From contig NC_086097.1 of NCBI RefSeq assembly GCF_963921235.1, positions 172,176,001-172,240,000 of the forward strand: a stretch of 64,000 nt of DNA, in the 5' to 3' direction. Below the pieces are notes generated by a model. That model did not search any database. It was not told where the DNA came from and saw nothing but the letters and a program-made list of their open reading frames with translations. Made by a program: the position numbers and the translations under genes. The first letter of the stretch is position 1, and each line of letters starts with the position of its first letter. Of this stretch, positions 5,261 through 56,049 are shown in pieces. Source of the stretch: Mobula hypostoma. Taxonomy: Eukaryota.

Positions 5261-6482
5261 CGCTGAGCCTTGGAACTAAGGAGGCTCTGAGAGGACCCAA
5301 TACAGGTAATAAGATTGAGAAGTGAATTAATGAAGTCATAGGTTTATACAACATGGAAACCGTCCCTCTGGCCCAACTCATCCATGCCAACCAAGATGTC
5401 TACCTGAACTAGTCCCATTTGTTCGTTATTGTCCCACTTTCCTCTAAACTTTTCCTACCTGTACAGTCCAATCGAGTGGAAAATGACACAAAACACCAAT
5501 TTGGGTCTCACCAATGATGTATAATCCCATTGTGGGGAAAATGACAACAAATTTCCCCTCTGGTTGGATGAGACTAGAACTATAGTTCATAGTTCATAGA
5601 TATAGGACAAAGGTGAACCATTTATGAGGAATCTAGGTAGGATCTTCTTCACTCCATGTAAAGAATGCGTGTGGAATGAGCAGCCAGCTGACGCAAGTTC
5701 ACTTGCAACATTTAGAGAAGTTTGGCTAGGTACATGGATTAGAAGGGAATGGAGGGTTATGGTCCGCGTACAGGTAGATAGGACTAGGCAGAAGATCAGG
5801 TTGGCATGAACTAGATGGTTCAAAGGGTCAGTTTTTGTGCTGTAGTCATTTATGACTATATGACTCTAAGAAGGGAAAGATGGCAAGGTGAATATCTTAA
5901 TTAGTGTCCAATTTTATTCTGTTGTTTTCCCAGCTCTATCCTTTTGTTCAGCCACAGTGAAGCTGGACATCAATAACATTCCACTGCCCAAACACCCATT
6001 CATGTAAGCAACATACCAAGCACTGGAGGAACAGCAGATAAAGCAGCATCTGTGGAGGGAAATGGACAGTCAATGTTTCAGATTGAGACTCCTCAGCTAA
6101 ATACATGTGATAGTGACCAAATTATCCAATCAAGAGTCTCAGCCTGAAATGTCGAATTTTTGTTTCCCTCCAGACACTTCCCAACTTGCTGAACTTCTCC
6201 AGCGCTTTGTATGTTGTTCTACGATTCAGCATCAGTAGTCCCCCGTGCATCCATCCAGCTGATCTTGCCAAATCCATTATTTCCCAATATCATCTTCCCC
6301 TTCCCGATCCCCGCACGGCATGAAGTCACAAGAATTGCTGCTGAACCCACTTGCCCATCATGCCGCTGCAGTGTTACAGAACACGACGGTTGAATCACAA
6401 TGTCTACTGCACCTGTTACCCCATCACACCACGCTCCTGACTTAAGACTCGCCTTTAAGAAGTGATTACAAAGGTCACAAAC

Positions 6483-6931: not shown

Positions 6932-7062
6932 CTTAAAAAAACAAACATGGAACAGGCAATCGTAAACACACGAGACACTCCAAATGCTGGAAATTTAGAA
7001 CAACAAACACAAAATGCTAGACGAACTCAGCAGGTTGGGTTGTATTTATGGAAGTGAATAAA

Positions 7063-7100
7063 CAGTCAACGTTTCGAGCTGAGACACTTCTTCAGGACTG
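7063..7100 (-). ncRNA. Minimal hammerhead ribozyme motif (Penelope terminal repeat)
   Basis: Minus strand CAGUC-CUGAAGA-A-GUGUCUCAGCUC-GAAA-CG-UU-GACUG; 5-bp stem I, intact core, mismatch in stem II. Confidence 0.6.
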
Positions 7101-7186
7101 GAAAAGAAAGGGGAAAACGGTGGGGGCGGGGAGGGCAGGAGGACAAGCTTGAAGGTGATAGGTGAAGCCAGGTGGGTGGGGGGCAT

Positions 7187-10100
7187 AAAACATAGGAGCC
7201 TAATTAGGTCACTCGGCCCATTGAGTTCTGTTCCACCATTCCATCATGGTTGATTCATTATCCCTTTCAATCCCATTCTCCTGCATTCTCCCAGTGACCA
7301 TTGACGCCCTGTCTAATCAAGAACCTATCAACCACCACTTTAAACATACTCAATGACATAGCCTCCACAGCCACCTGTGGCAATTCCTTCTTATTTCTGT
7401 TTTAAATTAACATCCCTCTATCCTGAGGCTTTGCGTTCAGGTCCTAGACTCATCCACTATACTCCCAACCTTTTTATGTCATGGACCAATTCCATTAAGC
7501 AAGGGGTCCATGGACTATAGGAAACATCCTCCCCACACCCATCCTATTCAGATCTTTCAATATCTGATAGGTTTCAATGAGATCCCCCTTCATTCTTCTA
7601 AACTCCAGCAAACACAGGCCCAGAGCCATCAAACACTCCTCATATGTTAATACTTTCATTCCCAGAATCATACTCATGAACCTCCTATGCAAGCACAACC
7701 TTTCTTAGATAAGGGGCCCAGAACTGCTCACAGTACTCAGTGCAGTCTAATGCCTCATAAAGCCTCAGCATTACATCCTTGCTTTAATATCCTAGTCCTC
7801 TTGAAATGAATGTTATCATTGCATTTGCCTTCCTAACAACTGACTCAACCCGTAAGTTAAACTTCAGGGAATCCTGTACAGGGATCCAAGTCATTTTGCT
7901 CCTCTGACTTTTGCTTTTCTCCCCGTTTAGAAAATCGTCTACCCCTTTAGTCCTTCTACCAATGTGCATTATCTATGCTATATTCCCTATGTTATATTCC
8001 ATCTGCCACTTCTTTGCCCATTCTCCCAATCTGTCTAAGTTCTTCTCCAGACTTCCTGCTTCCTCAAAACCACTTGACCCTCCACCTATCTTTGCATCAT
8101 CTACTTGGCCACAAATCAATCAATTCCATCATCCAAAACATTAACATACTATACAACATGAAAGGAAGCAGTCCCAACATCAACTCCAGTGGAAAACCAC
8201 TAGTCACTGGCAGCTAACCAGAAAAGTCCCTCTTTATTCTCACACTTTGCCTCCTGCCAATCAGCTGATCTTCTATCCTTGCTGGTGTTTTCCTTTCCAT
8301 ACCATTGGTTCTTATCTTGTTGGGCTGCCTCATGTGTGGGACATTGCCAAAGGCCATCTGAAAATCCAAGTAAAAAACATCCACTGACTCTCCTTTTGCC
8401 TGTTATTTCCTCAAAGAATTCCAACAGATTTGCCAGAAAGATTTCCCTTAAGGAACCCATGCTGGCTTTGGCCTATTTTATCATGTGCCTCCAAGTACCC
8501 CGAAACCTCATTCTTATTATGGACTCCAACATCTTCCCAACCAGTCAAGCTAACTGGTCTATAGTTTTCTTTCTTCTGCCTCCCACCCTTCTTAAAGAGT
8601 GGAGTGACATTTGCAATTTTCTGGTCCTCCAGAACCATTCCAGGATCTTGTGGTCCTTGAAATATCATTACTGATGCCTCCACACTCTCTTCAGCTACCT
8701 CTTTCAGGACCTGGGGTGTAAGATCATATGGTCCAGTTGACTTAACTACCCAATTTTTAGCTTCCCAAGCACTTTCTCCCTAGTGTAGCAACTAAGCTAA
8801 CTTCCGCTCCCTGACACCCTCGAACTTCCGGCATACTGCTAATGTCTTCCACAGTGAAAACTGATGCATAATACTTATTACATTCATTTGCCATTTCTTT
8901 GCACCCCCCACCCCCATTACTTCCTATCCAATGTCAATGTCCTATCCGGTCCAATATTGATTCTCAGCTCTCTTCTACTCTTTACATAATTGAAAAAAAC
9001 TATTGATGTCCTCTTTTATATTATTGGCCTGCTTACCTCCATATTTCTTTTCTCTCCTTATGGTTTTTGAAAAGCTTCCCAATCCTCTAACACCCCACTA
9101 ATTTTTATTCTATTATATGCCCCTCCTTTACTTTTATGCTCTCTTTGACTTCTCTTGTCAGCCACGATTGCCTAATCTCCCTTTAGAAAACATTTTTGGA
9201 ATACATCTTTGGAATGAATCTTTCCTATGCTTTCTGAATTGCTCCCAGAAACTGCAACCATTGTTGTTCTGCCATCACCCCTGTTAGTGTCCCTTACAGT
9301 CAACTTCGTCCAACTCTTCTCTTGTGCCTCTGTAATTACCTTGACTCCACATGAAGTATTGATACTCCTGACTTTATCTTCTCCCTCTCGAACTGCAGGG
9401 TTAATTATACCACATAATGATCACTGCCTCCTAACGGTTCTTTTACCTTAAGCTGCCTTTCCCCTAGTGGGCTCAACCTCAGGCTACTCTAGGCATTCTA
9501 TAAATTCCCTCTCTTGGTATCCAGCACCAACCTAATTCTCCCAATCTACCTGCATATTGAAATCCCCATGACTATCGCAACATTACCCTTTTGATGGGGT
9601 TCTCTTAACTTCTGTTGTAATTTGTATCCCATATCCTGGCTACAAATTGGAGGCTGGTATACAACTCCCAACAGGGTCTCTTTATCCTTGCAGTTTCTTA
9701 ACTCTACCCACAAAGATTCTACATCTTCCGATCTTATGTCATCTCTTTCTAAGGACTTGATTTCATTTTTTACCAACAGAGTCACCCCACCCCAATCTGA
9801 CAACCTGCCTATCTTTTCCATACAAGATGTATCCTTGGATGTTAAGCTCCAAACTTTGATTTTTCAACCATGACTCAGTGATGCTTGCAACATTATACCT
9901 GCCAATCTCTAGTTGCGCTTCAAAATCATCTGCCTTATTCCATATACTGCATGCTTTCAAATATAACAGCTTCAGTCCAGTGTTCAGTCCTCACAGTCTC
10001 ACTACTCATTGCATCTACTTGTATAACAATTGCCCTTTCCTCAGCTCTATTGCTCCATTTCCCATCTCCCTGTCAAATTAGTTTAAACCCTCCCCATTAA

Positions 10101-10372
10101 CTCTAGCAAACATACCCACAAGGGTACTGGTCCCCTTAGGTTCCTGCCCTTTTCGTAAAGATCACACCTTCTCCAGAAGAGATCTCAATGATCTGAAGAC
10201 CTGCCTTCTGCACCAATCCATCAGCCACGCATTCATCCGCCAAATCCTATCCTTGCCCTCACTGGCACATGGAAGCAATCCAGAGACTATTACCCTGGAG
10301 GTCGTGCTTTTCAGCTTTCTACTTAACTCCCTACATTCTTTCATCAGGAACTCCTCTCTTTTCTTACCTTTG
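7187..10372 (-). mobile_element. Degenerate near-full-length CR1 LINE nested in the Penelope arm
   Basis: ORF1 esterase-like remnant (VIVSGLLP..NAWL.DWCRR), endonuclease remnant (ITESWL, ESLWVELRN) and RT remnants in the expected order. Confidence 0.8.
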
Positions 10373-13300
10373 TTGGAGTAAGAAGCTGGGAGGTGATAAA
10401 TTGAAAAGGCAAAGGGCTGGAAAAGAACGGATCTGTTAGGAAATGAGAGGGGGTCATGGGAATAAAGGAAGGAGGAGGGGCACCAGGGGGAGGTGATACA
10501 CAGGTGAGGAGAAGAGGAAAGAAGGCAGAGTGGGGAAAATGAAGGAGCAGGTAGGGGAAGGGAAAAAAAAGTTACCAGAAGTTGAATACATAAATATTAA
10601 CGTCATCATGTTGGAGACCACCTAGATGGAATATGAGATGTTGCTCCTGAGAGTGGCCTCATTGTGGCCGAAGGAAACTGACATGTTGGAAGGGAAATGG
10701 GGATATGAATTGAAATGGTTCTCCATCAGGAAATACCACATTTTGCAGATGGAGCTGAGGTGCTCCACAAAGCAGTCTGCCAATCTACGTCAGGTCGCAC
10801 CAATGTAGAGGAGACTGCACTGGGAGCGCCAAGTACAGTGGACAGCCCCATTGATGCTGCCTTCCCCAGCACCTCCTCCATTTTCCAAACATCCGCACTC
10901 ACCACATCTTCCTCCACCTTAAGAGGGTTAGAGTTCCTCCTGTCTTCATCTACCACCCCATGAACCTCCACATCCAACACAGCATTCTCCACAATTTCCA
11001 CCATGTGCAATGGGACCCTACCACCAGACACATCTTTACCTTCTGCCCAGATTACTCTCTCCATGATTTCCTTGTCCATTCATCCCTCCCCACCAATCTC
11101 CCTATAAGCAGCAGATGTGCTACACGTGCCCATTCACCTCCTCGCTCACCTCCATTTAGGTCAAACAGTCCTCTCAGGTGAGGCAACACTTCACATGTGA
11201 ATCTGTTGGGGGTTGTCTACTGTATCCAGTTCTCCTGATAGAGCCTCCTTTATATTGGTAAGACCTGACGTAGACTGGGGACTGCTTTGATGAGCACCTT
11301 CACTCCATCCACAAAAAGCAGAATTTCTCGGTGGACAACCACTTCAATTCCTATCCCTATTCCTAATCCGACATATCGGTCCATGGCCTCCTCCTTCAGC
11401 AATGATGAAGCCTCACCCAGGTTGGAGGAGCAACATCTCATTCTCTGTCTGGGTTGCCTCCAACCTGATGGCAGGAACATTGATTTCTTCCCCTCCCCCT
11501 TCTTCATTTCCCCAGTCTGGCCTCTTACATCTTCTCCTCACCTGTCTATCACCTCTTTCTGATGCCCTTCCCCTTCTCTTTCTTCCATGAACCACTATCC
11601 TCTCCTATCAGATCCTTTCTTCTCCAGCCCTTTGCCTTTTCTACTTGTCACCTCCCAGCTTCCGACTTCATGCCCCCTCCTCCACCCCTGCCTTCACTGA
11701 TCACCTTTCAGCTTGTCTTCCTCCCCCTCCCGCCAGCTTCTTATTCTTTCCAGTCCTGATGAAGCGTCTCGGCCCGAAACAGCGACTGTTTATTCATTTC
11801 CATAGATGCTGCCTGGCCAGCTGAGTTCCTCCAGCATTGTGCGTGTGTTGCTAAACATAGAACAGGGACATTTCCTTCAGTCAATGATGGCTGCAGTAAA
11901 GTTAGTGCTAAATTAAACTAAAGCCATCTGCCTGGGCACATGATCCATATCTCTCTATTCCCTTTATATTCATGTACCTATCTAAGAGACTTCCAGATGA
12001 CAGTCTCATATCTTCTTCCATCACCAGCCCCGGCTGTGCATCCCAGGCACCCATGCACAGAAAACCTGCCCTGCACATCTCGCAGAGTCACACAGCATGG
12101 AAAGCGGAATGTTGGCCCAACATGTCCATGCCAGCCTACGCTACTCCCACTGGCCCACGTTTGACCCATCTCCCTCTAAGCCTTTCCTATTGATGTGTTG
12201 ATGAAAGTTATTGTGCCAAACACCTTCTTCACCAGCCCAGCTACCCGTGGTACCACTTTAATCTTTCCTCCTCTCACCTTAAATGCCTGTCCTGTGGTGT
12301 TTGATGTTCCTAAACTGGGGAACAAGATTCTGATTGTCTACCTTATTGCTGTCTCTCATTTTTTAATAAAAGCTCTGTCAGGCCTCATGCAAACCAATCT
12401 CCCCTCCACTGATTCTGTCTACAGTTCCCCCACCTCAAGAAAGCAGCCACCATAATCAAAGAACACTCCCACCCCAGTCGTTCTCTCTTCTCCCTGCTAT
12501 TGGGTAAAAGATGCAAAAGCCCAAAAATATGAATCACCAAACCCAACAACAGCTTTTATCCTGTTATAAACTGACTCCTCACATGATACAAGACAAGCTA
12601 TTGATCTCCTCGTTTAACTAGTCATGGTTCTTGCATTTTATTTGTCTATCTTCACTGCATTGCACTTTCTCCGTAACCCCAACCTATTTTCTGCACGATT
12701 CTGCAGATGCTGGAAATCCAGAGCAACACACACAAAATACTGGAGGAAGTCCGCAGTTCCGGCAGCATCTATGGAAATGAATAAACAGTCGATGTTTCAG
12801 CCAACATCCTACATCAGGACATTCTGATTTCTTATGTCTAGAATGATTCATCCTGGGTGACATGCAAATCAAAAGTTTTTCCACTCTATCTGTGACAATA
12901 GTAAACAATACCATCTTGCCCAGCACATCAGAGGGTCCCAAGTTTAAGGGGAAGGAAGGTGAGGGGCAGCATTTTTACCTGGAGGTGATCTGTATATGGA
13001 AGAAGCTGCCAGGGGAAATGGTTGTGGCAGATGCATTAACATTTAATCAATACTTGACCAGGTACAGTATTTCGATAATAAAAGTCTATGTGGATATGAG
13101 CCAAACATGAGCATATAGGACTGGCTTAAGCAGGCATTTTGATCGGCATGGACCAGTTAGGTCAAATGTTAGTTTCCGTGCTGTGTGACTCTATCCAGGA
13201 CATGCCCTCTATTTAATACTGCCAACAGAGTTTAAAAACCCACCTTTAACAATTCAGAAACAGCTTCTTCCCCTCCACCATCAGATTTGTGAATGGCCCA

Positions 13301-14149: not shown

Positions 14150-14236
14150 GTCCCGAGGAGAGGGGGCCCCCGGCCAGAGCACCGGTACTACGCGTAAACT
14201 TTGGCAGCAGATCCTAGGACCCTGTGCTCCTTAACC

Positions 14237-16126: not shown

Positions 16127-16211
16127 TATGTGGAGAACTGTTTTGTAGCGGTGGTAAATTACTATAAGTAGCAAAAACAAATACATAAAACAAGAGGAAT
16201 AAGGAGGGTTC

Positions 16212-16432
16212 AAGCAACACACATCAAAGTTGCTGGTGAACGCAGCAGGCCAGGCAGCGTCTCTAGGAAGAGGTACAGTCGACGTTTCAGGCCGAGACGA
16301 AGGGTCTCGTCCTGAAACATCGACTGTACCTCTTCCTAGAGATGCTGCCTGGCCTGCTGCGTTCACCAGCAACTTTCATGTGTGTTGCTTGAATTTTCAG
16401 CATCTGCAGAATTCCTGTTGTTTGCATTTTTA
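16212..16432. mobile_element. Fold-back Penelope mini-insertion (near-perfect palindrome) with 14-bp TSD
   Basis: Inverted arms of ~88 bp (both strands translate MLVNAAGQAASLGRGTVDVSGRD); exact AATAAGGAGGGTTC at 16198-16211 and 16433-16446. Confidence 0.85.
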
Positions 16433-16470
16433 AATAAGGAGGGTTCGTGGGCTATTCAGAAAGCTGGTGG

Positions 16471-17755
16471 TCAATTGAATTGAGTTTATTTCTTACATCC
16501 TTCACATACGTGAGGAGTAAAAATCTTTACGTTACGTCTCCGTCTGATTGTGCAATGTGCAGTTTACAGTAATTTGTAATAAATAGTATGTACAGTAAGA
16601 TATACAACAGAACAGTCAACATAGCTTCGAATTGTGTCAGCATGAATTAGTCTGATGGCCTGGTGGAAGAAGCTGTCCCGGAGCCTGTTGGTCCTGGCTT
16701 TAATGCTGCGGTACTTTAATGCTGTTTCCTGGATTGGAGCAGCTGGAACAGTTTGGGTTGGGGTGACTCGGGTCCTTTTTCGGCACCTATCGCTGTAAAT
16801 TTCCTGAACAGTGGGAAGTTCACATCTACAGATGCACTGGGCTGTCCGCACCACTCTCTGCAGAGCCCTGTGATTGAGGGAAGTACAGTTCCCATACCAG
16901 GCAGTGATGCAACCAGTCAGGCTGCTCTCAATTTTGCCCCTGTAGAAAGTTCTTAGGATCTGGCATCTCATGCCAAACCTCTTCAACCGTCTGAGGTGAA
17001 GAAGACGCTGTTGTGCCTTTTTCACCACACAGCCAGTATGTACAGACCGTGTGAGATCCTCAGTGATGTGTATACTGAGGAACTTGAAGCTGTTTGCCCC
17101 CTCAACCCCAGATCCATTGATGTCAATATGGGCTAGCCTGTCTCCGTTCCTCGTATAATTCACAACCAGCTCTTTTGTTTTTGCGATATTGAGGGAGAGG
17201 TTCTTTCCTTGACACCAGTGTCAGCGTGATGACTTCCTCTCTGTAGGCTGCCTCATTATTATTTGAGATTTGGCCAATGGTGAAGTGTCGTCAGCAAATT
17301 TAATTAGCAGATTGGAGCTGTGGGTGGCGACAGTCATGGTTTTACAGAGGGTAAAGGAGGGGGCTTACGACACAGCCCTGGGGGGCTCCTGTGTTGGGGG
17401 TCAGAGGGGCAGAGGTGAGGCAGCCCACTCTCACCACCTGCCAGCGATCTAACAGGAAGTCCAGAATCCAGCTACACAAGGCAGGGTGAAGGCTGAGGTC
17501 TCTGAGGTTCTTGTCAAGCCTGGAGGGAATTATGGAGTTGAATGCTGAACTGTAGTCCAAGAACAGCATTCTCACATGAGCATCCCTCCTCTCCAGGTGT
17601 GTAAGGACGGTGTGTAAAGACTGTGGCTATTGCATCATCTGTCAATCAGTTGTGTCGATAGGAGAATTGTAGGGGGTCTAATGTGAGTAGTAGCAAGCTG
17701 CAGATGTAGTCCGTGACCAACCTCTCAAAGCATTTGCTTATTATTGAGGTGAGTG
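16471..17755 (-). mobile_element. Rex1/Babar-type LINE RT fragment
   Basis: RMLFLDYSSAFNSI, TGAPQGCVVSPLLY, FKFLSIHITEDL and KKAQQRL motifs. Confidence 0.85.
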
Positions 17756-18495
17756 GAGGGGTAAGAGTTGTTCCTGAAATGTCAAATGTGGGTCTTGAGG
17801 CTCAGGTACTGTTCCTCCCTTTCATTGTATTTGTCTCTGTTTCATCTTTCCACAGTGTTTCCTCTCACATCCCAAGGACAGGTGGTTCAGTAGGGTAATG
17901 GCCTCTGTGAAGGAGAGTGGGAGCATCTGGGGGTGTTTGGTGGGAATGAGGGGGGAATAATTGGTGTAGGATGAGTGTAACTGACCGGTTGATGTTGGGT
18001 GCTGAGCAGCCGGCCATGTTTCTGTGCCGTGTCTGTGAGAAAACAGGTCCGGAGTGGGATTCCCACGGTTTGGGATCAGAAGGCAATGGTGGAAGGATTA
18101 AATTTGGGCCACTTGTCTGTTTATTGTCCCATGTTGGCAGCCTGAATGATGGTAGAATCTTTACCCCAGGGTGGAAGTGTCAGATACCACAGAGTGTAGG
18201 TTTAAGGTGTTGGGAGAGAGTATAACGGAGATTTATGAGGCACGTCTTTTATACGAAGAGTAGTAGGTGCCTGGAACATGCGGCCAGGAGAGATGATGGA
18301 AGCAATACGATAGCGGTGCTGCAGAGGCATTTAGACAGACACATGAGCAGGCATGGAATGAAGGGACGCAGACCACTTGCAGGCAGACATTAGTTAGACT
18401 GGCGTCATGGACGGCTGGAAGTGCCTGTTGGTGCTGTACTGTTCTGTCTTCTGTGATTAGGGGCTGGAGGGCTACAGGCAATTGACAAAGGGAAG

Positions 18496-18724
18496 TGTTG
18501 TTTTGTAACTCTAGAAACTAATCAAAAAAAATCAAGGGACTGGTGATAAATGTGTCTGCTTCATTTTTACTTTTAGTAAGGTACGCACTTATGACATGGT
18601 GGCATCCTGATGTATGCCATTCAAGTACTTTTACATTAAACCTATAATAATGAGCAACAAACAATAAAGGAAGCCTTATCAAGTATTATATTTACAATAT
18701 TACTGAAATATTAAATAGACAACA
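18496..18724 (-). mobile_element. Solo LTR of the Gypsy family at 40338-44002
   Basis: TGTTG...CAACA ends; reverse complement aligns to the Gypsy LTRs (atatttcagtaatattgtaa, gaatggcatac, gagttacaaaac); interrupts a CR1 3' tail. Confidence 0.75.
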
Positions 18725-19833
18725 GAGAGGGAATGAGGCCTGGGACAGATCAGCCATGATTGTATGGAATGGCAGGGCAGCCTTGAGGGGCCGAGTGGCC
18801 TCCTGCTCCTACTGCCATTCGGGGTTTCGACCCAATACATTGACAATTCCTTTCCCCCACATCACAGAGTTCCTCCGACAGACTGTTCGTTGTTCCCTTT
18901 CCTAGTTTCTGTATTCCATGTTAACAACGTGCCTTTATAAATGTATGTGGTGTAAAGGCAGTGATGAACGACTGCAGTCCTTCAGTAAAAGTTTATCCAA
19001 AATGGTGCAGAGTGGAGGGTTCCAGGACATCGACTCATAAACCACAGAGAGGTGTAAGGAGTGAAGTAATTGTGATTCGTGCAGAGCTTAAAACCAAGGC
19101 AGAATTGGAAGGACTAAAGCGTCTCACAGGACTGGATGTGGGCACAGAGAAGACATCTGTGGAGGGATGACAAAGCAAGAGAAAGAATTTCAAAGTGCAT
19201 GGCTCCAAGGCATGTGAAATCAAATAATTTGGGTAATGTCTTCATGTTCTTAATATTGAGATAAACAAGTTGCACTCCTTTTCACCAAATATCTCATTAA
19301 AAATAGCAAAAAACATGTTGGACATTTCTGACTGTATCCACAGTTGAGACAGCCTTAGGCATTTATTAACTTGATTAAAAGGACACATTTTGTTTTTCAG
19401 AAAACAGCTCAACTTTTGCGTTCCCTTCCTGACTTTGTTTTAAAATTTACTTTGGAATTTATTTACCCGTCAGAGGGAAGACCTAATCAATCATTTGTCC
19501 AAAAGTCTGAATCTGTATTATGAATGGAAGATGTTTTTGGGTGGGAGGATGTGTTAGGAATCAACAGAAATCTTGCTGGGTAAGGGCACAAGGGAGAAAG
19601 TAAATGACTGTTTGTACTAGTTCCAGGTCTTCCTCTCCAGCACAGATTCTGTTGGATCATTTGTTACATCCATTAGTTAGTGATTCAAAGTAAAACAACC
19701 CAGCATAACCACATTACATAAACGTTTGCAGCCTGCTCCTGTTCTGAGGAATGGTTTGATGCTCAGGATCTGACCGCACAGTGTTGCTCTGTGGTTTACT
19801 CCACACCCCCACTTTGACTCGGCTCCTCTTAAC

Positions 19834-20070
19834 TCGGCACAGTAGCGTAACAGTATTACAGCACAGGCGAATAAGTTTCAATTCCTTCTGCTGTCTGTAA
19901 GGAGTTTGTACATTCTCCCTGTGACCATGTGTGTTTCCTCCGGGTGCTCCGATTTCCTCCCACATTCCAAAGACGTACAGGTTGGTATGTTAATTGGTCA
20001 CGTGGGTGTAATAGGGCAGCTCAAGCTCATTGGGCCAGATGGGCCTGTTACCGTGCTGTCTCTCTAAATT
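19834..20070 (+). mobile_element. V-domain (HE1-like) tRNA-derived SINE
   Basis: GGAGTTTGTACATTCTCCCTGTGACC...TTTCCTCCGGGTGCTCCG.TTTCCTCCCACATTCCAAAGAC core; related copies near 34785-35110 (+) and 59420-59690 (-). Confidence 0.75.
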
Positions 20071-21295
20071 TCACAAAATAGTCTCGCGTATTGTTGCTTC
20101 CTGCCTACCTCATACCCTCTGTCAGGCAGATTCTTTGCCGCTGCCAGTACAGTGCCTCTTTCTGGAATTCCCCTTAGCTCTTGAGTTCAACTGTTGGCTT
20201 TTAGTATGGAATGTTTTCCCAAAAGCCTTTTGAGAAGTTGAGATAGCCAGAATCATCTGAGTTTCTGAAGTACGTTTGGGTTGTTACTGCACCAGTGAGG
20301 ACCCACTGCTGATTGACCTTCATAGGATTATTGATGTACAGATTGCAAAGTACATACAGCATGGCAACAGGTTCATAGCTGAGTCCTGACCCACAGAAAT
20401 CCAATGCTTTCAGCTCTTTAATCAAATACTTTGTCCTTTCTCACTCAGGTAATTACGTACTCACCATTTACTAAATCTCTCTGTTCAAAATGAGTATCAT
20501 ATCCCCACCATTTCCCTGCTGAGGACATTTCACCTGTACAAACAATTGGATCAACTGGCAGGATCACAAGGGACTGCAGGTGCTAGGGTCTGGACAAGGA
20601 AATAAAGAATCACAACTCAAAACATTGACTGTCCATTTCCCTCCAGAGATACTGCCTGGCCCACTGAGTTCCTCCAGTATCTTGTGGGTTGATTAGTGTT
20701 GGTTCTGTATACGTTACATTTACAATGTTCATTTCTGGTCCTGCCTGCAAGTAAACATAGGTGTAAACTCAATCAAACCCTTGTACAATTTTGAACAGCT
20801 TTGGCAGATAAGCCCACAATCTTTCCTTATCCAGAGAACCAAGCTGACACCTCTATATCCTTCCTATAACCTGTAGACCTTATATAGACACACCACTAGT
20901 AAGGCCAACACTTACTGCCCACCATAATTTCTCCATGATGACTGATGATGAGTTGTCCTCTGAATCTCTCTAGCCTGTGTAAGAGCCTTCAGAATACTAT
21001 TGAGTCAGGAATTCCAGGGTTTTGGCCTGGAAGGAACAGTACCATGTTTCTGGCTGGGATGGTGTGTGATTTGGAGGGGAACCTGCAGGTGGTGGAGTGG
21101 GTGTAAATATGGGGATCTTGGGGTCCAGGTCTATAGCTTCCTGAAAGTGGCTGCACAAGTCATTAGGATGGTAAAGAAAGTGAACTTTTCATCCCTCTTC
21201 CCTCCGGGAGAAGGCTCAGGAGCTTGAAGACTCGTGCGGCCAGATTTGGGAACAGCTTCTTTCCAACTGTGATAAGACTGCAGAACGGATCCTGA

Positions 21296-21503
21296 ACACG
21301 AGGAGTTCTGCAGATCCTGGAAATTCAGGCAACACACATGAAAGTTGCTGATGAACGCAGCAGGCCAGGCAGCATCTCTAGGAAGAGGTCTTTCTTTCAG
21401 TTAGGCCTGACGAAGGGTCTCGGCCCGAAACGTTGACTCAGCCTCTTCCTAGAGGTGCTGCCTGGCCTGCTGCATTCACCAGCAGCTTTGATGTGTGTTG
21501 CTT
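21296..21503. mobile_element. Fold-back Penelope mini-insertion with 13-bp TSD
   Basis: Inverted arms; exact GAACGGATCCTGA at 21283-21295 and 21504-21516; sits inside a Rex1-type 3' end. Confidence 0.85.
21403..21438 (+). ncRNA. Minimal hammerhead ribozyme motif
   Basis: AGGC-CUGACGA-A-GGGUCUCGGCCC-GAAA-CG-UU-GACU; intact core and stem II, one mismatch in stem I. Confidence 0.7.
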
Positions 21504-22250
21504 GAACGGATCCTGACCCGGATCTGGGCCGTACCCTCCAAATATCCGGACCTGCCTCTCGGTTTTTTTGCACTACTTTACTTTCCCTTTTCTATTTTCT
21601 GTTTATGATTTATAATTTAAATTTTTAATATTTACTATCAATTTGTACTCCAGGGAGCGCAAAGCGCAGAATTAAATATAGCTGTGATGATTGTACGCTC
21701 TAGTATCAATTGTTCAGCGACAATAAAGTAAAGTAAAGAGAACTTTATTAGTTTAGTTATTGAGTTCAATAATTAGGAAGTTATGTTGCAGCTTTATCAA
21801 TCTCTAGTTCAGCCAGCATTTGGACTATTGTATTCATTTCTGGTCACCGCATTACAGGAAGGCTGCGGAAGCTCTGAAGAGAGAGCAGAAGAAGTTTATC
21901 AGGATGGCGCCTGGATAGGAGTGGGAGAGGCTGAGGGGAGACCTGATAAAAGTTTATGAGAGGGATAACCAAACTCCATTCTTTCCCAGAGAGAAACATT
22001 TAGTTCCAGAGGGCATGCATTTAATGTAAGTGAGTTAAGTTCGAAGGAGAAAGGCTTCAGGAAGGTAGATGTGGAAATGATGTTTCCAATAGTGGGAGAG
22101 TCTAGGACTAGAGGACACAGCCTCAGAATATAAGGACATCTCTTTGAAACAAAGATCAGAAAGAACTACTTTAGCCAGAGGGTGGGTGGTAAATTAGTGG
22201 AATTTATTGCCACAAACTGCTGTAGAGGGCCAAGTCATTAGGTATATTTA

Positions 22251-23120
22251 AAGCAACACACACAAAATGCTGGAGGAATTCAGCAGGTCAGGCAGCATCT
22301 TTGGAAAAAAGTACAGTCAACATTTTTGGCCCAGACCCTTCAGCAGGACTGGAGAAAAAAGCTGAGGAGTAGAGTTTAAAGGCAGTGGGGGGGGGGGGGG
22401 GAGAGAGAGAGAAAAACAATGTGATAAGGTGAAATCTGAAGGGGGAGGAATGAAGTAAAAAGCTGGGAAGTTGATTGGTGAAAGAGATACAGGGCTGGAG
22501 AAGGAGGAGTCTGATAGAAGAGGACAGTCAGCCATGGAAGAAAGAAAAGGTGGGGGAGCACCAGAGGGAGGCGATGGGTGGGCAAGGAGATAAGGTGAGA
22601 GAGAGAAAAGGGGATGGGAAATAGTGAAGGAGAGGGGGGTGGGGAAGGGGCATTACCAGAAGTTCGAGAAATCGATGTTCATGCCATCAGGTTGGAGGCT
22701 ACCCAAACAGAATATAAGGTGTTGTTCCTCCAACCTGAGTGTGGCCTCATCACAACAGTGGAGGAGGCTATGGATGGACATAATGGAATGGGAATGGGAA
22801 GTGGAGTTAAAATGGGTGGCCACTGGGACATCCCGCTTCCTCTGGCGTTCGGCAAACGGGTCTCCCAATCTATATTGGGCCTCAGCAATATACAGGAGGC
22901 CATCTGGAGCACTGGACACAGTAAATGACCCCAACCGACTCACAAGTGAAGAGTCACCTCACCTGGAAGGACTGTTTGGGGCCCTGAATGGTAGTGAGAG
23001 AGTAGGTGAAGCACTTGTCCTGTTTGCAAGGATAAGTGCCAGGAGGGAGATCAGTGGGGAGGGATGAATGGACAAGGGAGCCACGTAGGGCGCGATCCCT
23101 GCAGAAAGTGGGGGAGAGGG
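22251..23120 (-). mobile_element. Penelope-like 3' fragment (GIY-YIG end plus terminal repeat)
   Basis: ORF 22653-22943 LLYIAE..RLGDPFAE..PVATHFN..RLEEQHLIFCLGSLQPDGMNIDF; hammerhead core mutated. Confidence 0.85.
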
Positions 23121-28385: not shown

Positions 28386-31300
28386 GAGAGAACATTTCAA
28401 TGATGGGACAAGTGAGGTTGAGTGAAGCTATCCCCTTTGTTAAAGAGTCTGATAGTTGAGAGGTAATAACTGTTCCTAAACCTAATGGTGTGAGTCCTAA
28501 GGGTCTTGTACCTTCTTTCTGATGGCTGCAGTGAGGAAAGCATATCCTGGGTGGTGGGGGTCCCTGATAATGGATGCTGCTTTGCTGCAACAGCATTTCA
28601 TGTAGATGGGCTTTATGGTTGGGAGGGCTTTACCCATGAAGGACTGAGCTGTATCCACTACTTCTTGTAGAATTTTCCGTTCAAGAGCATTGCTGTTTCC
28701 ACACCAGGCTGTGATGCAGCCAGAATGTACTCTCCACTACACGACTACAGAAGTTTGTCAAAGTTTTGATGTCATGTCAAATCTTCGCAAACTGCTAAGA
28801 AAGTAGAGGTGCTGGTGTGCTTTCCTCATAATTACATTAAGGTACTGAGCCCAGGACAGGTCCTCAGAAATAATAACACCTAGGAATTTAAAGTTGCTAA
28901 CCCTCTCTACTTCTGATCTTCCAATGAGGACTACCTCTGGTTTCCCTCTCCTGAAGTCTACATTCAGTTCCTTGGTCTTGCTGACATTGAGTAAGAGGTT
29001 GTTGTTATGACGTCACTAACCACATTTTCAATCTCCCTTCTATATGCTGATTCATCACTACTTCAGATTCGGCCAAGGTTTTGTGGGGTTGGGGAATCAA
29101 CAACAAGAGGGCATGGTTTAAAGTTCAGTCACAACATGGAAACAGGCCATTCAGCCCAAGTGGTTCATGCCAGTCAAGATGACTGTCTAGTTGCATTTGT
29201 CTGCTTTTGGCTCAAAAATCTCTCTAAAAGTTTTCTATACATGTACCAGTCCGAGTACTTTTGAAGGTACCTGTCCCTGCTGCTTCTTCTGCCATCTAAT
29301 TCCATATACTGACTCCTTTCTGGGTGGAAAAATTTGCCCCTCAGTTCCTTATTAAATTTTGCCCTCTTACCTTCAATGTATGCGTGAAGTTCTTGATTCC
29401 TCAACCCTGTGGTAAAAGACAATGCACATTCAGCCTATCTACTGTATGCTCCGCATGACTCTATAAGATCAACCTTCATTCTCCTACATCCAATGGAAAA
29501 GTCCCAAATTTCTTAACCACTTTACATAATTCAGCCCGTTCAATCATGGCAATGTCCTTGTAAATCATCTCTGTACTCTTTCCAGCTAATGCCATCTTTC
29601 CAAATTTGAACACATCCTGGAGGATGTGCCAAATTTCTTCAGATTCTTAAGGAAGTAAAGCAAAATTGACGAGCTTTCTTGGCCATAACATCAACGTGGT
29701 GCACCAGAACAGGCTACTGGCGATGTTCATACCTAGGAACTTGAAGCTCTCAACCATATTCACCACAACACCATTGATGCAGACAGGAACATGTGCACTG
29801 ATCCGACCCCGCTTTCTGAAATGAATGACCAGCTCTTCATTTTTGTTGACATTGAGAGAAAGGTTGTTGTCATGACACCATGTCACTAAGCTCTCTATCC
29901 CCTTCTTGTATTCCAACAGGAAATCCATTTTAGCAGGCATGGGTGAGTTGGGGTGAGTTGGGGTGAAGGATTTGTTTCCAAGCTGCATGAATCCTTGACT
30001 CTCTGGCTCTAACTTACTGGACCAAAGGAGAAGGATGGTCTACAGATCCCCCCCACCCCCCCGCCATGGCAGGAACCTTTAGGCCATGCATATGGCTGAG
30101 AGTATGAGAGTTCGATGGAAGGGATTTTCGTGCTGCTATGGGGCTGCAGACATCTTCTGGCACCCGTGGACTTGATTTATGGCTGCAGTTCTGAGTACTG
30201 AGTGATTCATCGGGACAAAACCTCACACTTACCTGCGGTGGATCTACACACCGTCTTCCCACCGGATCGACTTCAGCTTTGGTCAATATGCTGCCATACG
30301 CAGACAACACTTTGTGTTTGCACGTGTTTGAATGTAGAACATGGAACAAAACAGCACATAAACAGGCCCTTTGGCCTACAATGTTGTGACAAACTAATTA
30401 AATTGGTAATTAAAATCCCAGCTAACCACTTCTGCGAACACAATGTCTGTTTCCCTCCATTCTCTGCACAGTCATGTGCTCATCTAAGGGTTTCTCAAAT
30501 GCCTCTGTGGTACTTACCTCCACTACCAGCCTGGACAGTGCATTCCAGGCACACACCGTACGCTGTGTATGAAATGTGATGCTGACACCTTCTTTGAACT
30601 TCCCCGTTCTCACCTTAAGTGCATGCTTTCTGATATTGGACACAATACTAGAGGGCATAACATTTCACTGCTAACCTCCAAATCTTTAATAACGTAATAA
30701 GATTGACCTTACTAAGCAAAGATCCCCATTGAGCCTGTTGTTGCTGTGCAAGCCTTCCTGACTGTTTTTCCACAACAAGAGTGCACAGTGTGACCTTTCA
30801 AAGGTCAGTCCAAAGGAAGGGTCTCAAGTCTCAACCTGAAATGTTGAGTCAAGAGAGACTACAGACACTGGTCTCTGGAGCAGCACCCAAAGGAGCCTGA
30901 AGAAGTCTGTTGGTCAGGCAGCAACTATGGAGGGAAATAAACAGTTAATTTTTTGAGATCCTCCAGCAGGACTGATATTCTTTTATCCCGATGAAGGGTC
31001 TCAGCCTGAAATGTCAACTGTTCATTTCCCTTGATAGATGCTGCCTGACCTGCTGAGTTCCTCCGGCATTTTGTTTGCATTGCTACTGAAACATCAACTG
31101 TTCATCTCCATCCAGAGATGCTACCTGACCTCCAGAGTCCCTCCATCTTGTTTTCTTTTTTATTCCAGCTTCTGCAGTCTCTTGTGTCTTAACTGATCTT
31201 GGAAACTTCCAGACAGAGTAGATACAGGGACAATGTTTCCACTGGCTATGGAATCAACTCCAACTGGTATTGTTATAGGTTTCTTCATGTCACATATATC

Positions 31301-32431: not shown

Positions 32432-34345
32432 CAGTGGATTCTGGTTAATTGGGACACAACAGGACCTGTATATTTTGGCCCAATTTGTAGCTGCCCAATT
32501 AACTGAAGTTTCCTGGAACTAGTTAAAAAGGTATATAAAAAAATCTACCATTTAACTAAGTAACAAGTTATGTATTTAAGTGTAATACAGAACAAATTAT
32601 AACACCATCACTGCTACTTCAGTACTTTAACTGTGCATTAGTTCCTAATAGTTATCAGCGGAAAGATTCATCTGGCATATGCCGGCCTTTATGGGGTGTC
32701 CAGGGAGGGGTAGCACCTCTGGTGAAGGGGCTTGTTGTGCCTCTTCAGGGCAGCTCGCTCTCTGTTGGTCACTCAGCGAACACTCAGCTCTCACCTGTGA
32801 CTCTGAGTAGCTGTTTGCACGCGACAGCAGCCACCTCCCGGTACTCTGCTCGCCAGGCACACTAAACCAGGTGAGGATAGCTGGTGGGCGTCATACTCCA
32901 GTGAAATAGGGACTGCTTGTCCTAGCATGTGAAGTCAGCTGCGGCAGACTGGGTAGGTGAGATCAACAGAGAGATACAACAGCTAAGAAGGTGGCTCTGA
33001 AAGCCTTCATGGAAGGGAAAAGCATGATAAGGCAAAGCATTGTCATCGTTTTTTTTTCTGCAACCAAGGAAGACCCCAGTTTGTGATGACTACTTGTACC
33101 ACTGGAACCAGACTTTCGAGGTCAAGAGAGTGGCAATGTCCTATTGTAATGGCTTTTCCACTTTAAAAACTCTCTGGCACAGGTTTCACTGCCATCAGAT
33201 ATGACAGACTGCTGCGTACTTTTGATTTACTGTAAATGAATAAAATTAGCACAGGCAGCTAGTGCAGAAAATGGACTGACCTCATACAATGCTTCCAATG
33301 ATTGCATCCTCCAGATCTGCACCTTCTTTGTAACATTCAAGATGATTGTTAATACCTTCAAATTCTTTGTAGTTAAGGTAGTGAAATTGTTCATTTTCAC
33401 TCCCGGCCATTTCTGACATCTCCAAGCCTGCGAGCCTGAAATCGCTGTAAGCAAAACAATACTAAATTGCCTTAATGCTTAATGCTCACTAATGGTAAGT
33501 GACAAAAATCATTGATTTTTGAACACAAACACGAACAAATGATAATACTTAAAAACTGTTTGCTCTAAGCACAGTGTCATGTCTACTGACATGACTGACA
33601 GTAGTTAGAAACTGTTCAGCAGTGGTCTCCTGTCCCTATTAAGTGGCATAATATCCCAAATAAACAAAGGTAATCCCAGCAATACCTGAGATTCCCTTTA
33701 CAAACAAAGGAATCCCCATTTCCCTCTCTCATGGATATGTTCATCCATGGCCTCCTACACTGTTGTGATGAGGCCACACCCAGGCTGGAGGAACAACACC
33801 TTATATTTCATTTGGGTAGCCTCCAACCTGATGACATGAACATCGATTTCTCAACCTTCTGGTAATGCCCACCACCTCCCTTCACCATGTCCCATCCCCT
33901 TTACCGTCTCTCAGTTTATCTCATTACCTGCCCATCACCTCCCTCTGGTGCTCCTCCCCCCTTTTTTTTTCTTCCATGGCCTTCTGTATCTTTCACCAAT
34001 AAGCCTCTCAGTTCTTTACTTCATCCCTCCCCCTCCAGGTTTCACCTGTCATCTGGTGTTTCTTTCTATCCCCTCCCCCCATCTTTTAACTTTACTCCCC
34101 AGCTGTTTTTCTCCAGTTCTGCCGAAGGGTTTCAGCTCAAAACATCAACTGTACTTTTTTCCATAGATGCTGCTCAACCTGCTGAGCTCCTCCAGCATTT
34201 TGTGTCTGTTGTATGGATTTCCAGTATCTGTAGACTTTCTCTTGTTTGTAAAGGGAATCCCATCTATTTCCTCGATCAGTTTTTGTTGCTTAAGCGTTGT
34301 CCCAAATCTCAAATAACCAATGAACCAATTAACCAGAATCTACTG
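32432..34345 (-). mobile_element. Internally deleted pogo/Tigger-like DNA transposon with nested insertions
   Basis: 21-bp TIRs CAGTGGATTCTGGTTAATTGG / CCAATTAACCAGAATCTACTG (1 mismatch), TA on both flanks; minus-strand remnant resembling a transposase C-terminus at ~33280-33480. Confidence 0.8.
33710..34250 (+). mobile_element. Penelope-like 3' fragment nested in the Tigger-like element
   Basis: CDEATPRLEEQHLIFHLGSLQPD coding remnant followed by the terminal repeat with a decayed hammerhead. Confidence 0.75.
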
Positions 34346-46138: not shown

Positions 46139-48589
46139 TTTGTTTATTTATGTCTCCGTCTCCGAGCCTACTTCTTCGGCAAGGACTCTTCCACCCCCAC
46201 CGATGACCCCTTCTCCCGTCTTCAACCCTCCTCTTCTTCATGGACACCCCGCTCTGGTCTTCTGCCTGCTCTGGATCTCTTTATCGCTAACTGCCGACGG
46301 GACATCAACCGTCTCGACTTCACCACACCTTGTCCCCATTCCAACCTCACTCCTTCGGAACGCTCTGCTCTCCACTCCCTCCGCACTAATCCTAACCTTA
46401 TTATTAAACCCGCCGATAAGGGGGGTGCTGTTGTAGTCTGGGGTACTGACCTCTACCTTGCCGAGGCACAGCGACAACTCGAGGATACCTCCTCTTATTT
46501 ACCCCTCGATCGTGACCCCACTAAGGAGCACCAGGCCATTGTGTCCCACACCATCACCAACTTTATCCGCTCAGGGGATCTCCCATCCACTGCTACCAAC
46601 CTTATAGTTCCCACACCCCGCACGTCCCGTTTCTACCTCCTACCCAAGATCCACAAACCTGCCTGTCCTGGCTGACCTATTGTCTCAGCTTGCTCCTGCC
46701 CCACCGAGCTCGTTTCTGCATACCTCGACACGGTTTTATCCCCCCATGTTCAATCCCTTCCGACCTATGTTCGTGACACTTCTCACGCTCTTAAACTTTT
46801 CGATGATTTTAAGTTCCCTGGCCCCCACCGCTTTATTTTCACCATGGATGTCCAGTCCTTTTATACTTCCATCCCCCATCAGGATGGTCTCAAAGCTCTA
46901 TGCTTCTTTTTGGATTCCAGACCTAATCAGTTCCCCTCTACCACCACTCTGCTCCATCTAGCGGAATTAGTCCTTACTCTTAATAATTTCTCCTTTGGCT
47001 CCTCCCACTTCCTCCAAACTAAAGGTGTAGCTATGGGCACCCGTATGGGTCCTAGCTATGCCTGCCTTTTTGTTGGGTTTGTGGAACAATCTATGTTCCG
47101 TGCCTATTCTGGTATCTGTCCCCCACTTTTCCTTCGCTACATCGACGGCTGCATTGGCGCTGCTTCCTGCACGCATGCAGAACTCGTTGACTTTATTAAC
47201 TTTGCCTCCAACTTTCACCCTGCCCTCAAGTTTACCTGGTCCTTTTCCGACACCTCCCTCCCCTTTCTAGATCTCTCTGTCTCTGTCTCTGGAGACAGCT
47301 TATCCACTGATGTGTACTATAAGCCTACTGACTCTCACAGCTATCTGGACTATTCCTCTTCTCACCCTGTCTCTTGCAAAAATGCCATCCCCTTCTCGCA
47401 ATTCCTCCGTCTCCGCCGCATCTGCTCTCAGGATGAGGCTTTTCATTCTAGGACGAGGGAGATGTCTTGCTTTTTTAAAGAAAGGGGCTTCCCTTCCTCC
47501 ACTATCAACTCTGTGCTTAAACGCATCTCCCCCATTTCACGTACATCTGCTCTCACTCCATCCTCCCGCCACCCCACTAGGAATAGGGTTCCCCTGGTCC
47601 TCACCCACCACCCCACCAGCCTCCGGGTCAAACATATTATTCTCCGTAACTTCCGCCACCTCCAATGGGATCCCACCACTAAGCACATCTTTCCCTCCCC
47701 GCCTCTCTCTGCATTCCGCAGGGATCGCTCCCTAAGCAACTCCCTTGTCCATTTGTCCCCCCCATCCCTCCCCACTGATCTCCCTCCTGGCACTTATCCG
47801 TGTAAGCGGAACAAGTGCTACACATGCCCTTACACTTCCTCCCTTACCACCATTCAGGGCCCCAAACAGTCCTTCCAGGTGAGGCAACACTTCACCTGTG
47901 AGTCGACTGGGGTGATATACTGCGTCCGGTGCTCCTGATGTGGCCTTTTATATATTGGCGAGACCCGACGCAGACTGGGAGACCGCTTTGCTGAACATCT
48001 ACGCTCTGTCCGCCAGAGAAAGCAGGATCTCCCAGTGGCCACACATTTTAATTCCACATCCCATTCCCATTCTGACATGTCTATCCACGGCCTCCTCTAC
48101 TGTAAAGATGAAGCCACACTCAGGTTGGAGGAACAACACCTTATATTCCGTCTGGGTAGCCTCCAACCTGATGGCATGAACATCGACTTCTCTAACTTCC
48201 GCTAAGGCCCCACCTCCCCCTCGTACCCCATTTTTATGCACACATTCTTCCTCTCACTCTCCTTTTTCTCCCTCTGTCCCTCTGAATATACCTCTTGCCC
48301 ATCCTCTGGGTCCCCCCCTCCTCCTTGTCTTTCTTCCCGGACCTCCTGTCCCATGATCCTCTCGTATCCCCTTTTGCCTATCACCTGTCCAGCTCTTGGC
48401 TCTATCCCTCCCGCTCCTGTCTTCTCCTATCATTTTGGATCTCACCCTCCCCCTCCTACTTTCAAATCCCTTACTCACTCTTCCTTCAGTTAGTCCTGAC
48501 GAAGGGTCTCGGCCTGAAATGTCGACTGCACCTCTTCCTACAGATGCTGCCTGGCCTGCTGCGTTCACCAGCAACTTTGATGTGTGTTG
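46139..48589 (+). mobile_element. Penelope-like element, 5'-truncated: RT, Cys-rich linker, GIY-YIG endonuclease and terminal repeat
   Basis: One reading frame to the TAA at 48203-48205, broken only by TGA at 46673 and 47936; motifs KPADKG, LPKIHK, GVAMGT, RYIDG, CKRNKCYTC, VIYCVRC..YIGET; 12-bp flanking repeat TTTATGTTTATA at 46127-46138 and 48590-48601. Confidence 0.95.
48492..48527 (+). ncRNA. Minimal hammerhead ribozyme motif in the Penelope terminal repeat
   Basis: AGUC-CUGACGA-AGGGUCUCGGCCU-GAAA-UG-UC-GACU: stem I AGUC/GACU, full catalytic core, GUC cleavage triplet. Confidence 0.75.
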
Positions 48590-54442: not shown

Positions 54443-54629
54443 ACAAGTAATCTGCAGAAGGATTTGGACAGATTAGGAGTATGGGAATACAGTGCAGAGA
54501 ATCATATGGTCATGTACTATTTTCTAAATGGGGAGCAAATTCAGAAGTTAGAGGTGTAAAGTGCTTGGGAGTTCTAAAGTTAACTTTAGGTTAAGTCGAT
54601 AGTAGGGAAAGCAAATGCATTCTTAGCAT

Positions 54630-54767
54630 CACACACAAAATGCTTCAGTTGAAGAGCCCAAAATATCGACTGTACTCTTTTCCAAAGATGCTGCTTGGCT
54701 TGCTGAGATCCTGCAACATTTTGTGTGTGTTGCTTGGATTTCCAGCATCTGCAGATTTTCTCTTGTT
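54630..54767. mobile_element. Short fold-back Penelope terminal-repeat insertion inside a CR1 RT
   Basis: Short inverted arm cacacacaaaatgct versus cattttgtgtgtg; flanks tgcattcttagcat (54616-54629) and tgcaatcttagcat (54768-54781). Confidence 0.65.
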
Positions 54768-56049
54768 TGCAATCTTAGCATTCTTTTCCAGAGCACTAGA
54801 ATATAAAAGCAGAGACATAAGGCTTTATAAGGCATTGGTCAGACCACACTTGGAGCATTTTGAGCAGTTTTGGGCCCCTTATCTAAAAATTGATGTATTG
54901 TCATGGGGTAGAGTCCAGAGGAAGTTTACGGAAATCATTCTGGGAATGAAAAGGTTAATGCATGAGGAGTACTTAATGGCTCTGGCGTTTCTATTGCTGG
55001 AGTTTAGAAGGTTAAGGAAGAACTCATTGAAATCTACTGAATATTGAAAGACCTAGATTGAGTGGACATGTAGAGGTTGTTTCCAATATTGGAAGAGACT
55101 AGAGCCAGAGGGCATAATCTCAAAATACGACATTCCTTTAGAAGAGAGATGAGGAGAAATTTCTTTAGTCTTACTTACACGGTGAGCAGCAGGGCACTGA
55201 GAATTGTGGTAGAACAGAGGTGTATAAGATGATGAGAAGCATTGATCATGTGGATAGTCAGAGACTTCTTCCTGGCGAGTAGGTACAGAGGAGATGTCGG
55301 GGGTAAGTTTTTTTACACAGAGAGTGGTGAGTGCATGGAATGGGCTGCCGGCAACGGTGGTGGAGGCGGATACAATAAGGTTTTTTAAGATACTTTTGGA
55401 TAGGTACATGGAGCTTAGAAAAATAAAGGGCTATGGGTAAGCCTAGTAATTTCTAAGGTAGGGACATGTTTGGCACAACTTTGTGGGCCAAAGGGCCTGT
55501 ATTATGCTGTGCGTTTTCTATTTTTCTATGTTTCTATGATCTAGAGATACAGGTCCATAATTCCTTGAAGGTAGCATCACAGGTAGATAGGGGCATAACA
55601 AAAAAGCTTTTGGCATATAAATCAAAGTATTGAGTACAAGAGCCAGAATGTTATTTTGAATCTGTATCAGACATTGGTGAGGCTTAATTTGGAGTATAGT
55701 GTGCAGTTCTGGACCAATCTAGGGGAAAGATATCAATAAGAGAAAACTTTTACAAGGATGTTGCAGGATTTGAGGACCTCAAGGAAAGGTTGAATGGGTT
55801 AGGACTTTACTCCCTAGTGCAAAGGAGAATGAGGGGATATATGATAAGGTAAGGTCAAAGCAAGCAGATTTTCCCCACTGAGGTTAGGTGAGAATAGAAG
55901 TGGATGTCTAGGTTAAAGATGAAATGTGAAAGTTTAAAGGGAACATGAGAGGAAATTTCTTCATTCAGAGGGTGGTGAGAGAGTAGAATGGTGGATGCAG
56001 GTTCAATTTCAACACTTAACAGGAATTTGGATAGGTATATGGGTGGGTC

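Follow-up and report, generated by a model that had tools for sequence, protein, structure and literature searches.

Head-to-head insertions of Penelope-like elements with one-sided tails in a 64-kb stretch of animal DNA: probable products of two-ended priming

Introduction

Penelope-like elements (PLEs) leave insertions of a characteristic form. In the excerpted text of PMC8557442, an inverted 5′-truncated copy and a one-sided tail of 30–40 bp are given as typical of these elements, and the origin of the inverted forms is described as unresolved. Excerpts of other papers report the same structure within target-site duplications (TSDs) of 8–10 bp in rotifer PLEs (PMC3846280), minimal hammerheads on truncated copies, with some pairs on opposite strands 100–700 bp apart (PMC4209133), and a median length of 128 bp for de novo PLE insertions (PMC9977147). 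The PLE protein PAc, of the Poseidon type, cuts and extends both target strands, starts reverse transcription at two internal sites whose spacing equals the tail, and uses uncut RNA, according to the excerpted part of PMC11167929. Here we analyzed a 64,000-nt window (the whole stretch studied, Mobula hypostoma contig NC_086097.1, positions 172,176,001 to 172,240,000) together with contigs of four public DNA-type runs from four organisms and published papers. The window contains recurrent insertions in which two PLE 3′ ends stand head to head inside a single TSD. With a probability of roughly 85%, we read them as one-off, 5′-truncated insertions of endonuclease-bearing Neptune-type PLEs, drawn from three or more subfamilies within a single, very abundant family and produced by two-ended priming followed by joining.

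Anatomy of the insertions

An earlier note on this DNA had described four independent head-to-head insertions with 13–14-bp TSDs, two of them exact, and all four (E7, E16, E21 and E54) were confirmed as pairs of PLE 3′ ends, each inside its own TSD. A fifth TSD-flanked two-armed insertion, E34 (33679–34249), was absent from that note. One tail-bearing arm was combined with one tail-less arm in 5/5 cases, the 7-nt tail-less arm of E34 being less certain. The tail measured 30–40 nt and was confined to one arm, and the other arm stopped near GTGTGTTGCTT. Termini that had been called shared proved to be clustered rather than identical, the six TSD-defined tail-less ends being spread over 7 positions. 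Both arms pointed outward from the junction, so that antisense (cDNA) sequence from the 3′ region of the element follows on from each TSD end. The five insertions ranged from 138 bp to ~1.7 kb (nested LINE, or long interspersed nuclear element, excluded), and all five junctions differed.

The arms met at short matches in the two insertions with exact TSDs, overlapping by GAC (16296–16298, 3 nt) in E16 and by 1 nt in E21. In E54, the minus-strand tail-less arm covered 15–21 nt from 54630 and the plus-strand tail-bearing arm ~115 nt, up to 54767; this insertion sits in a CR1-type LINE, and two paralogous LINE copies in the window continue through the empty site. The minus-strand tail arm of E7 (~710 nt) lies in two pieces, 6957–7189 and 10374–10849, split by a later 3.2-kb CR1-type LINE (7190–10373), and its plus-strand tail-less arm (~10869–11852) measures about 985 nt. 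E34 begins with a 7-nt tail-less stub, after which its own right junction recurs in inverted form (33690–33712); a 5′-truncated plus-strand tail-bearing arm then runs to 34249. The inverted junction copy (within 33666–33720) comprises ~13 nt of tail end and 10 nt of TSD. It may have arisen when a top-strand primer copied its own overhang and then resumed at the tail site used before, or through rearrangement at a later date. The assignment of the tail to the long arm by the earlier note held for E16, E54 and E34 and failed for E21 and E7, where the tail is on the shorter arm (arm lengths of E16 and E21 in Table 1).

A terminal-unit profile built from 12 window copies, with matches counted at E<1, gave 31 matches in the 64 kb, which fell into ~10 two-armed loci (a total that includes E34, whose stub is too short for a profile match) and 8 single-armed loci. 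Seven of the close opposite-strand pairs (within 150 nt of each other) faced head-to-head and two tail-to-tail, one of the latter using a match at E 0.48. TSDs were sought at 18 loci or pairs in the window, and 12 of these had no TSD of at least 11 bp. Among 600 random pairs of 21-base end windows, an exact repeat of at least 12 bases occurred in 0/600 and a repeat of at least 13 with 1 mismatch in 2/600. Since a single TSD brackets both arms in five cases, this null makes it hardly credible that the pairs are independent copies juxtaposed by chance or an assembly artefact, even with a unit this dense and with no aligned contig spanning the whole stretch 16299–16560. The arms moreover differ from each other by 5–23%, unlike mirror artefacts, and the E54 empty site is read through in the paralogous LINE copies.

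The five more decayed inverted pairs that had been listed (near 1420–2180, 6006–6250, 25020–25200, 30820–31190 and 37150–37410) did consist of head-to-head terminal units, one arm match of the 25-kb pair being weak (E 0.13), and no TSD of at least 11 bp was found in any of them. At 30803–31190, four terminal units stand in a row (plus, minus, plus, plus), with inverted and tandem forms together.

Table 1. Positions of the PLE-derived insertions and their parts in the window.
Feature	Positions	Strand	Remarks
E16 TSD, left copy	16198..16211	+	14 bp, exact
E16 tail-less inverted arm	16212..16298	-	87 nt; in element sense, stops at GTGTGTTGCTT
E16 tail-bearing arm	16296..16432	+	137 nt; hammerhead core incomplete; tail 16391–16432
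E16 TSD, right copy	16433..16446	+	
E21 TSD, left copy	21283..21295	+	13 bp, exact
E21 tail-bearing arm	21296..21389	-	94 nt; without hammerhead
E21 tail-less arm	21390..21503	+	114 nt; near-intact minimal hammerhead ~21402–21438
E21 TSD, right copy	21504..21516	+	
E54	54616..54781		TSD 54616–54629/54768–54781, 14 bp, 1 mismatch
E7	6943..11866		TSD 6943–6956/11853–11866, 14 bp, 1 mismatch
E34	33666..34262		TSD 33666–33678/34250–34262, 13 bp, 1 mismatch
Decayed head-to-head pair	6005..6250		left arm tail-less, right arm tail-bearing; no TSD found
Decayed compound locus	30803..31190		head-to-head pair and partial tandem unit; no TSD found
5′-truncated dead PLE	46139..48589	+	tail-less, single-armed; exact 12-bp TSD 46127–46138/48590–48601

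Hammerhead cores, subfamilies and RNA folding

The pattern of CUGANGA, stem II, GAAA and NUH was found at three places only in the window, 21402 (+), 7100 (−) and 48491 (+), so that the carriers of a complete minimal-hammerhead pattern were the right arm of E21, the left arm of E7 and the long element 46139–48589. The E21 hammerhead has a GUU triplet and one stem I mismatch. The label hammerhead-bearing, given earlier to all four insertions, therefore fits E21 and E7 and does not extend to E16, which begins inside the core, or to E54, where the core is lost. A search of the window against Rfam at gathering score was without a hammerhead match, as was a search of 21280–21520 with the threshold relaxed to E 10, which on E21 gave only generic microRNA-hairpin matches, far below cut-off. 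Scans with the hammerhead core pattern yielded 0 matches in viral contigs, metagenome contigs and prokaryote genomes.

Several arms extend past the point of hammerhead cleavage, in keeping with a template of uncut RNA. The separate idea that the arm junctions lie at the ribozyme cut site was ruled out for E16 and E21, whose arms end 7–40 nt away from it.

Three subfamilies could be told apart: one with E16, E21, the long element and a copy at 49.7 kb (84–95% alike), a second with E54, E34 and the copy at 22.3 kb, and a third with E7 and a copy at 12.7 kb. Both arms of each insertion belong to one subfamily. Arm-to-arm identity was 95% over 87 nt in E16, 89% over 63 nt in E21, and 77% over 112 nt in E7, where the arms also have a common subfamily indel. 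Position 16377 in E16 and its counterpart in the left arm of E21 both hold a C that is rare (~1–2% by subtraction) in runs X1 and X5. That the two tail arms have this C in common was weighed as possible evidence of separate templates and then set aside, being compatible with chance.

Single arms folded no better than their shuffles (z −0.99 to 1.01 in 6/6). The core at 16340–16347 and the tail at 16399–16406 could form a 7–8-bp stem around a small hairpin, the 3′ base of which coincides with the tail-less end. This core–tail stem, of 7 bp in the prediction from 10 tail-bearing arms, is conserved in 10 arms with almost no covariation, two-sided change occurring in 1/7 pairs and in one sequence; it may be a candidate RNA signal for the reverse transcriptase (RT), a lead only.

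Ends of the terminal unit in other contigs

Contigs of the four runs were aligned to 16299–16560, which comprises the right arm of E16 and its flank, and 10,768–33,269 contigs matched per run, those of a second repeat at 16470–16560 counted as well. This latter interval is the start of another very high-copy repeat, and many contigs begin at 16473 in all four runs. Among 24 of the 882 loose-end rows, eight of nine right-running loose ends into long unlike sequence fell at 16386–16389, the GTGTGTTGCT end, with all four runs represented; the ninth, at 16371, continues as a variant of the GTGTGTTGCT end. Contig depth dropped again over 16407–16433, the end of the tail. In the same rows, the flank consensus beyond the loose ends was AT-rich, and GAA was kept in the consensus of four rows and not in four, at 38–43% agreement, a split that is neither proof nor exclusion of primer pairing. 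The unique flank of E16 at 16443–16460 was covered in 2/4 runs, with no bridging piece among those listed. Joints in the contigs, in the 15 of 39 that are listed, stood at single-copy depth (at most 12.8, and 43.5 for one go-back joint).

This depth bears on whether the short palindromes form a non-autonomous family, MITE-like (miniature inverted-repeat transposable element) or retrozyme-like, whose members are transcribed whole and put back into the genome by the PLE protein. MITEs have uniform size and internal sequence, are amplified as a unit and have terminal inverted repeats that match each other, as in a DNA transposon; retrozymes carry hammerheads in direct repeats that release a monomer RNA, with circular RNA or self-cleavage in vivo. 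The insertions here come in five sizes, with five junctions and from three subfamilies, 0/5 having a common junction or size; the tail sets their two ends apart, which is not the case with terminal inverted repeats, and the ends derive from the 3′ end of a retroelement. Their arms are inverted rather than direct, an intact core is never present on both arms of one element, and 8 loci are single-armed. The MITE-like character proposed in the earlier note thus stops at appearance, namely the small size, inverted ends and TSDs. We consider a unit family very unlikely, even given the abundance of the terminal unit in the contig counts above and the non-autonomous PLE derivatives known in Chlamydomonas from the excerpted text of PMC8557442 and PMC9977147. 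No two insertions are alike in size or junction, and they are therefore by-products, not a MITE or mini-element family.

The long element and the parent family

The element at 46139–48589 contains an RT, a CX4CXXC linker, a GIY-YIG endonuclease and a 3′ terminal repeat with a minimal hammerhead (48491–48528). Its single frame (46085–48205) reads DKG (in PADKGG), the RT motifs, the linker CKRNKCYTC and a GIY-YIG core with two cysteines; the RVT_1 match of this frame (E 0.00088) is below the curated cut-off. The GIY-YIG motifs in the translation are GVIY..LYIG and YCVRCS*CGLLYIG, then EHL and THF. The 88-aa end piece was without a Pfam match, and relatives of 749–889 aa, 54–55% identical, do have RVT_1 and GIY-YIG matches; no named reference PLE protein was among the relatives returned. 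A CX2-5CxxC linker between RT and endonuclease marks the Neptune and Nematis clades (PMC8557442, excerpted text). By these motifs, the parent is an endonuclease-bearing (EN+) PLE of Neptune or Nematis type, the two clades not being separated by them.

Elements like this copy had been suggested as the mobilizers. The copy itself cannot be the source, because ~210 N-terminal residues are missing, the frame has two in-frame stops and YIDG replaces the YxDD motif of the RT; mobilization by elements like it stands at the level of the family, and there for E16 and E21 (87–95% identical over the terminal unit) and not for E54 and E7 (61–69%). As for a pseudo-LTR (pseudo-long terminal repeat) or tandem arrangement, the long copy is 5′-truncated, and what was found is a partial tandem of terminal units at 30970–31184 and go-back joints in contigs. 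About 15 extra AT-rich, TSD-like bases (46139–46153) follow the left TSD and precede the PLE sequence proper.

Matches between target ends and the element

We compared the five TSD bases adjoining each of the six TSD-defined tail-less ends with the continuation in tail-bearing copies of the same subfamily. They matched at 3, 3, 2, 4, 4 and 1 positions, in total 17/30 against 7.75 expected (P 0.0004), and the far end of each TSD, taken as a control, gave 9/30. The measure was chosen after looking, and the sample is small. Leaving out E16 and E21, the cases that suggested the idea, 11/20 positions matched (P 0.005). Leaving out E34, whose 7-nt stub could belong to the inverted copy of its right flank, 13/25 matched (P 0.005), and without all three 7/15 (P 0.064). 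Unbroken matches summed to 7 bases in the six ends (P 0.019) and to 1 base in the four independent ends (P 0.71), so that strict contiguous microhomology finds no support beyond E16 and E21. The target had earlier been said to begin GAAC right after GTTGCTT as a continuation of the element; both exact TSDs do begin in this way, and the element itself continues GAAT.

These imperfect matches at the tail-less ends, weak and from a small sample, lend modest support to the microhomology-assisted integration that the earlier note had envisaged. At somewhat less than even odds, we suggest that the nicked target end pairs imperfectly (~3–5 nt, up to 8/10) with the RNA just downstream of a proximal start site, and that this pairing fixes which base within ~7 nt serves as the start. 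We found no account of primer-end pairing in PLEs in the literature, key older subscription papers being outside the reach of the search. If the match holds genome-wide, it would correct the current in vitro model and bring PLE priming nearer to annealing-guided priming.

A model of two-ended priming

For the observed anatomy, with its TSDs, arms of matching subfamily, differing junctions and clustered tail-less ends, we propose the following course. The GIY-YIG endonuclease would cut the target with a stagger of ~12–14 nt, a distance we infer from the TSD length, and each of the two 3′ ends would prime reverse transcription on element RNA. One primer would be extended from a distal start site, giving the tail-bearing arm, and the other from a proximal site 30–40 nt upstream, at the base of the small hairpin, giving the tail-less arm; at the proximal site the primer end might, less certainly, pair imperfectly with the RNA. 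Both cDNAs would halt early at variable points and probably be joined head to head through matches of 1–3 nt, with gap filling producing the TSD. The palindromes of ~140–220 bp would then be the shortest products, without any further copying as units. A pair of start sites with extension of both strands, as described for PAc, leads to one tail arm and one tail-less arm, and also to single-armed tail-less copies such as 46139–48589; the use of uncut RNA, described there too, accounts for arms that cross the ribozyme cut site.

By itself, a single priming event, with the inverted arm arising through self-priming or fold-back on an antisense template or in a cDNA hairpin, leaves unexplained the fixed stop of the second arm, which single-armed, TSD-flanked insertions such as 46139–48589 also use, and the tail-less arms that reach further 5′ than the tail arms in E21 and E7. 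Self-priming was proposed for rotifer PLEs from palindromes at inverted junctions (PMC3846280, excerpted text), and here the hairpin region of hammerhead stem II contains the E16 junction, and E34 has the inverted copy of its own junction. Both strands were extended in vitro (PMC11167929, in the excerpted part), and we regard a single priming event as unlikely.

Several points weigh against two-ended priming as proposed. TSD-flanked two-armed insertions available for study in the window number n=5 only, and no strand-changing joints (0) occurred among 15 of the 39 contig joints, the E16 junction lying at the edge of the aligned stretch. The copies here do not tell one RNA molecule from two. 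The in vitro work concerns a Poseidon-type, not a Neptune-type, element (PMC11167929, as excerpted), and Arkhipova et al. 2013 explain insertions of this same form by self-priming, with an antisense template (PMC3846280, as excerpted).

Surroundings

The window as a whole is repeat-rich animal DNA of ~43% G+C with CR1-type and other LINE fragments. At 22251–23125 (minus), a single-armed tail-less PLE piece without a detected TSD lies in a CR1-type LINE, and the target in three paralogues ends GCA, which is also the end of the element. A likely splice acceptor is present at ~6933, and the E7 TSD falls in the pyrimidine tract of this acceptor, ~9 nt upstream of it. Two coding-looking stretches on the minus strand (6455–6956 and 13556–14230), without a Pfam match, presumably resemble a dermatan-sulfate epimerase-type gene. 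At 52306–54345 (minus), an RT (RVT_1, E 3.7e-13) is followed by a frame that looks like a restriction-like endonuclease, and we take this to be a non-LTR element of R2/NeSL type.

Comparison with known systems

The design of these insertions, an inverted truncated copy with a one-sided tail and a TSD, is already published and is known PLE anatomy; fold-back insertions with stereotyped ends derived from PLEs, as the earlier note had them, are therefore borne out, and a new kind of mini-element is not. What is possibly new is only the weak sign of a cut DNA end pairing with the element RNA. As material, the short TSD-flanked stubs are of value in that they record both priming events and the junction in 150–250 bp.

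The second primer of LINE-1 twin priming anneals to internal sites that vary, and the arms consequently span different parts of the element, whereas both arms here are copies of one terminal region, begun at two fixed sites. The two are alike in that both target strands prime cDNA, which leads to an inverted truncated insertion in one TSD with short junction matches (PMC2837659, as excerpted).

Metazoan PLE hammerheads, as far as the excerpted text of PMC4209133 describes them, share with those of the window the Type I motif, CUGANGA, an extra base before stem II, GAAA, a one-pair helix III, a short stem I and an occurrence mostly on truncated copies, sometimes in opposite-strand pairs. In contrast, most copies here have a broken core, and that text mentions no cartilaginous fishes.

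The family resembles PAc, the Poseidon element of the green anole (PMC11167929, excerpted), in its two fixed ends a tail apart, in starts downstream of the minimal hammerhead and in read-through of the cut site. PAc/Poseidon is without the CX4CXXC linker, whereas the family here has it, as do Neptune and Nematis. For PAc, the excerpted text of PMC11167929 reports no homology between the start site and the cleaved DNA, whereas the six ends here partly match.

A close likeness in form is to rotifer and other EN+ PLE insertions (Pen2a_Av etc.; PMC3846280 and PMC8557442, both as excerpted), which likewise have a head-to-head inverted 5′-truncated copy, a one-sided tail of 30–40 nt and one TSD, and whose elements carry a hammerhead in the terminal repeat and an RT with a C-terminal GIY-YIG domain. 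The TSDs here are 12–14 bp, in contrast to the 8–10 bp of the rotifer elements, and, unlike the rotifer PLEs in the excerpted text of PMC3846280, most copies here are reduced to their last 100–250 nt and the copy number is very high.

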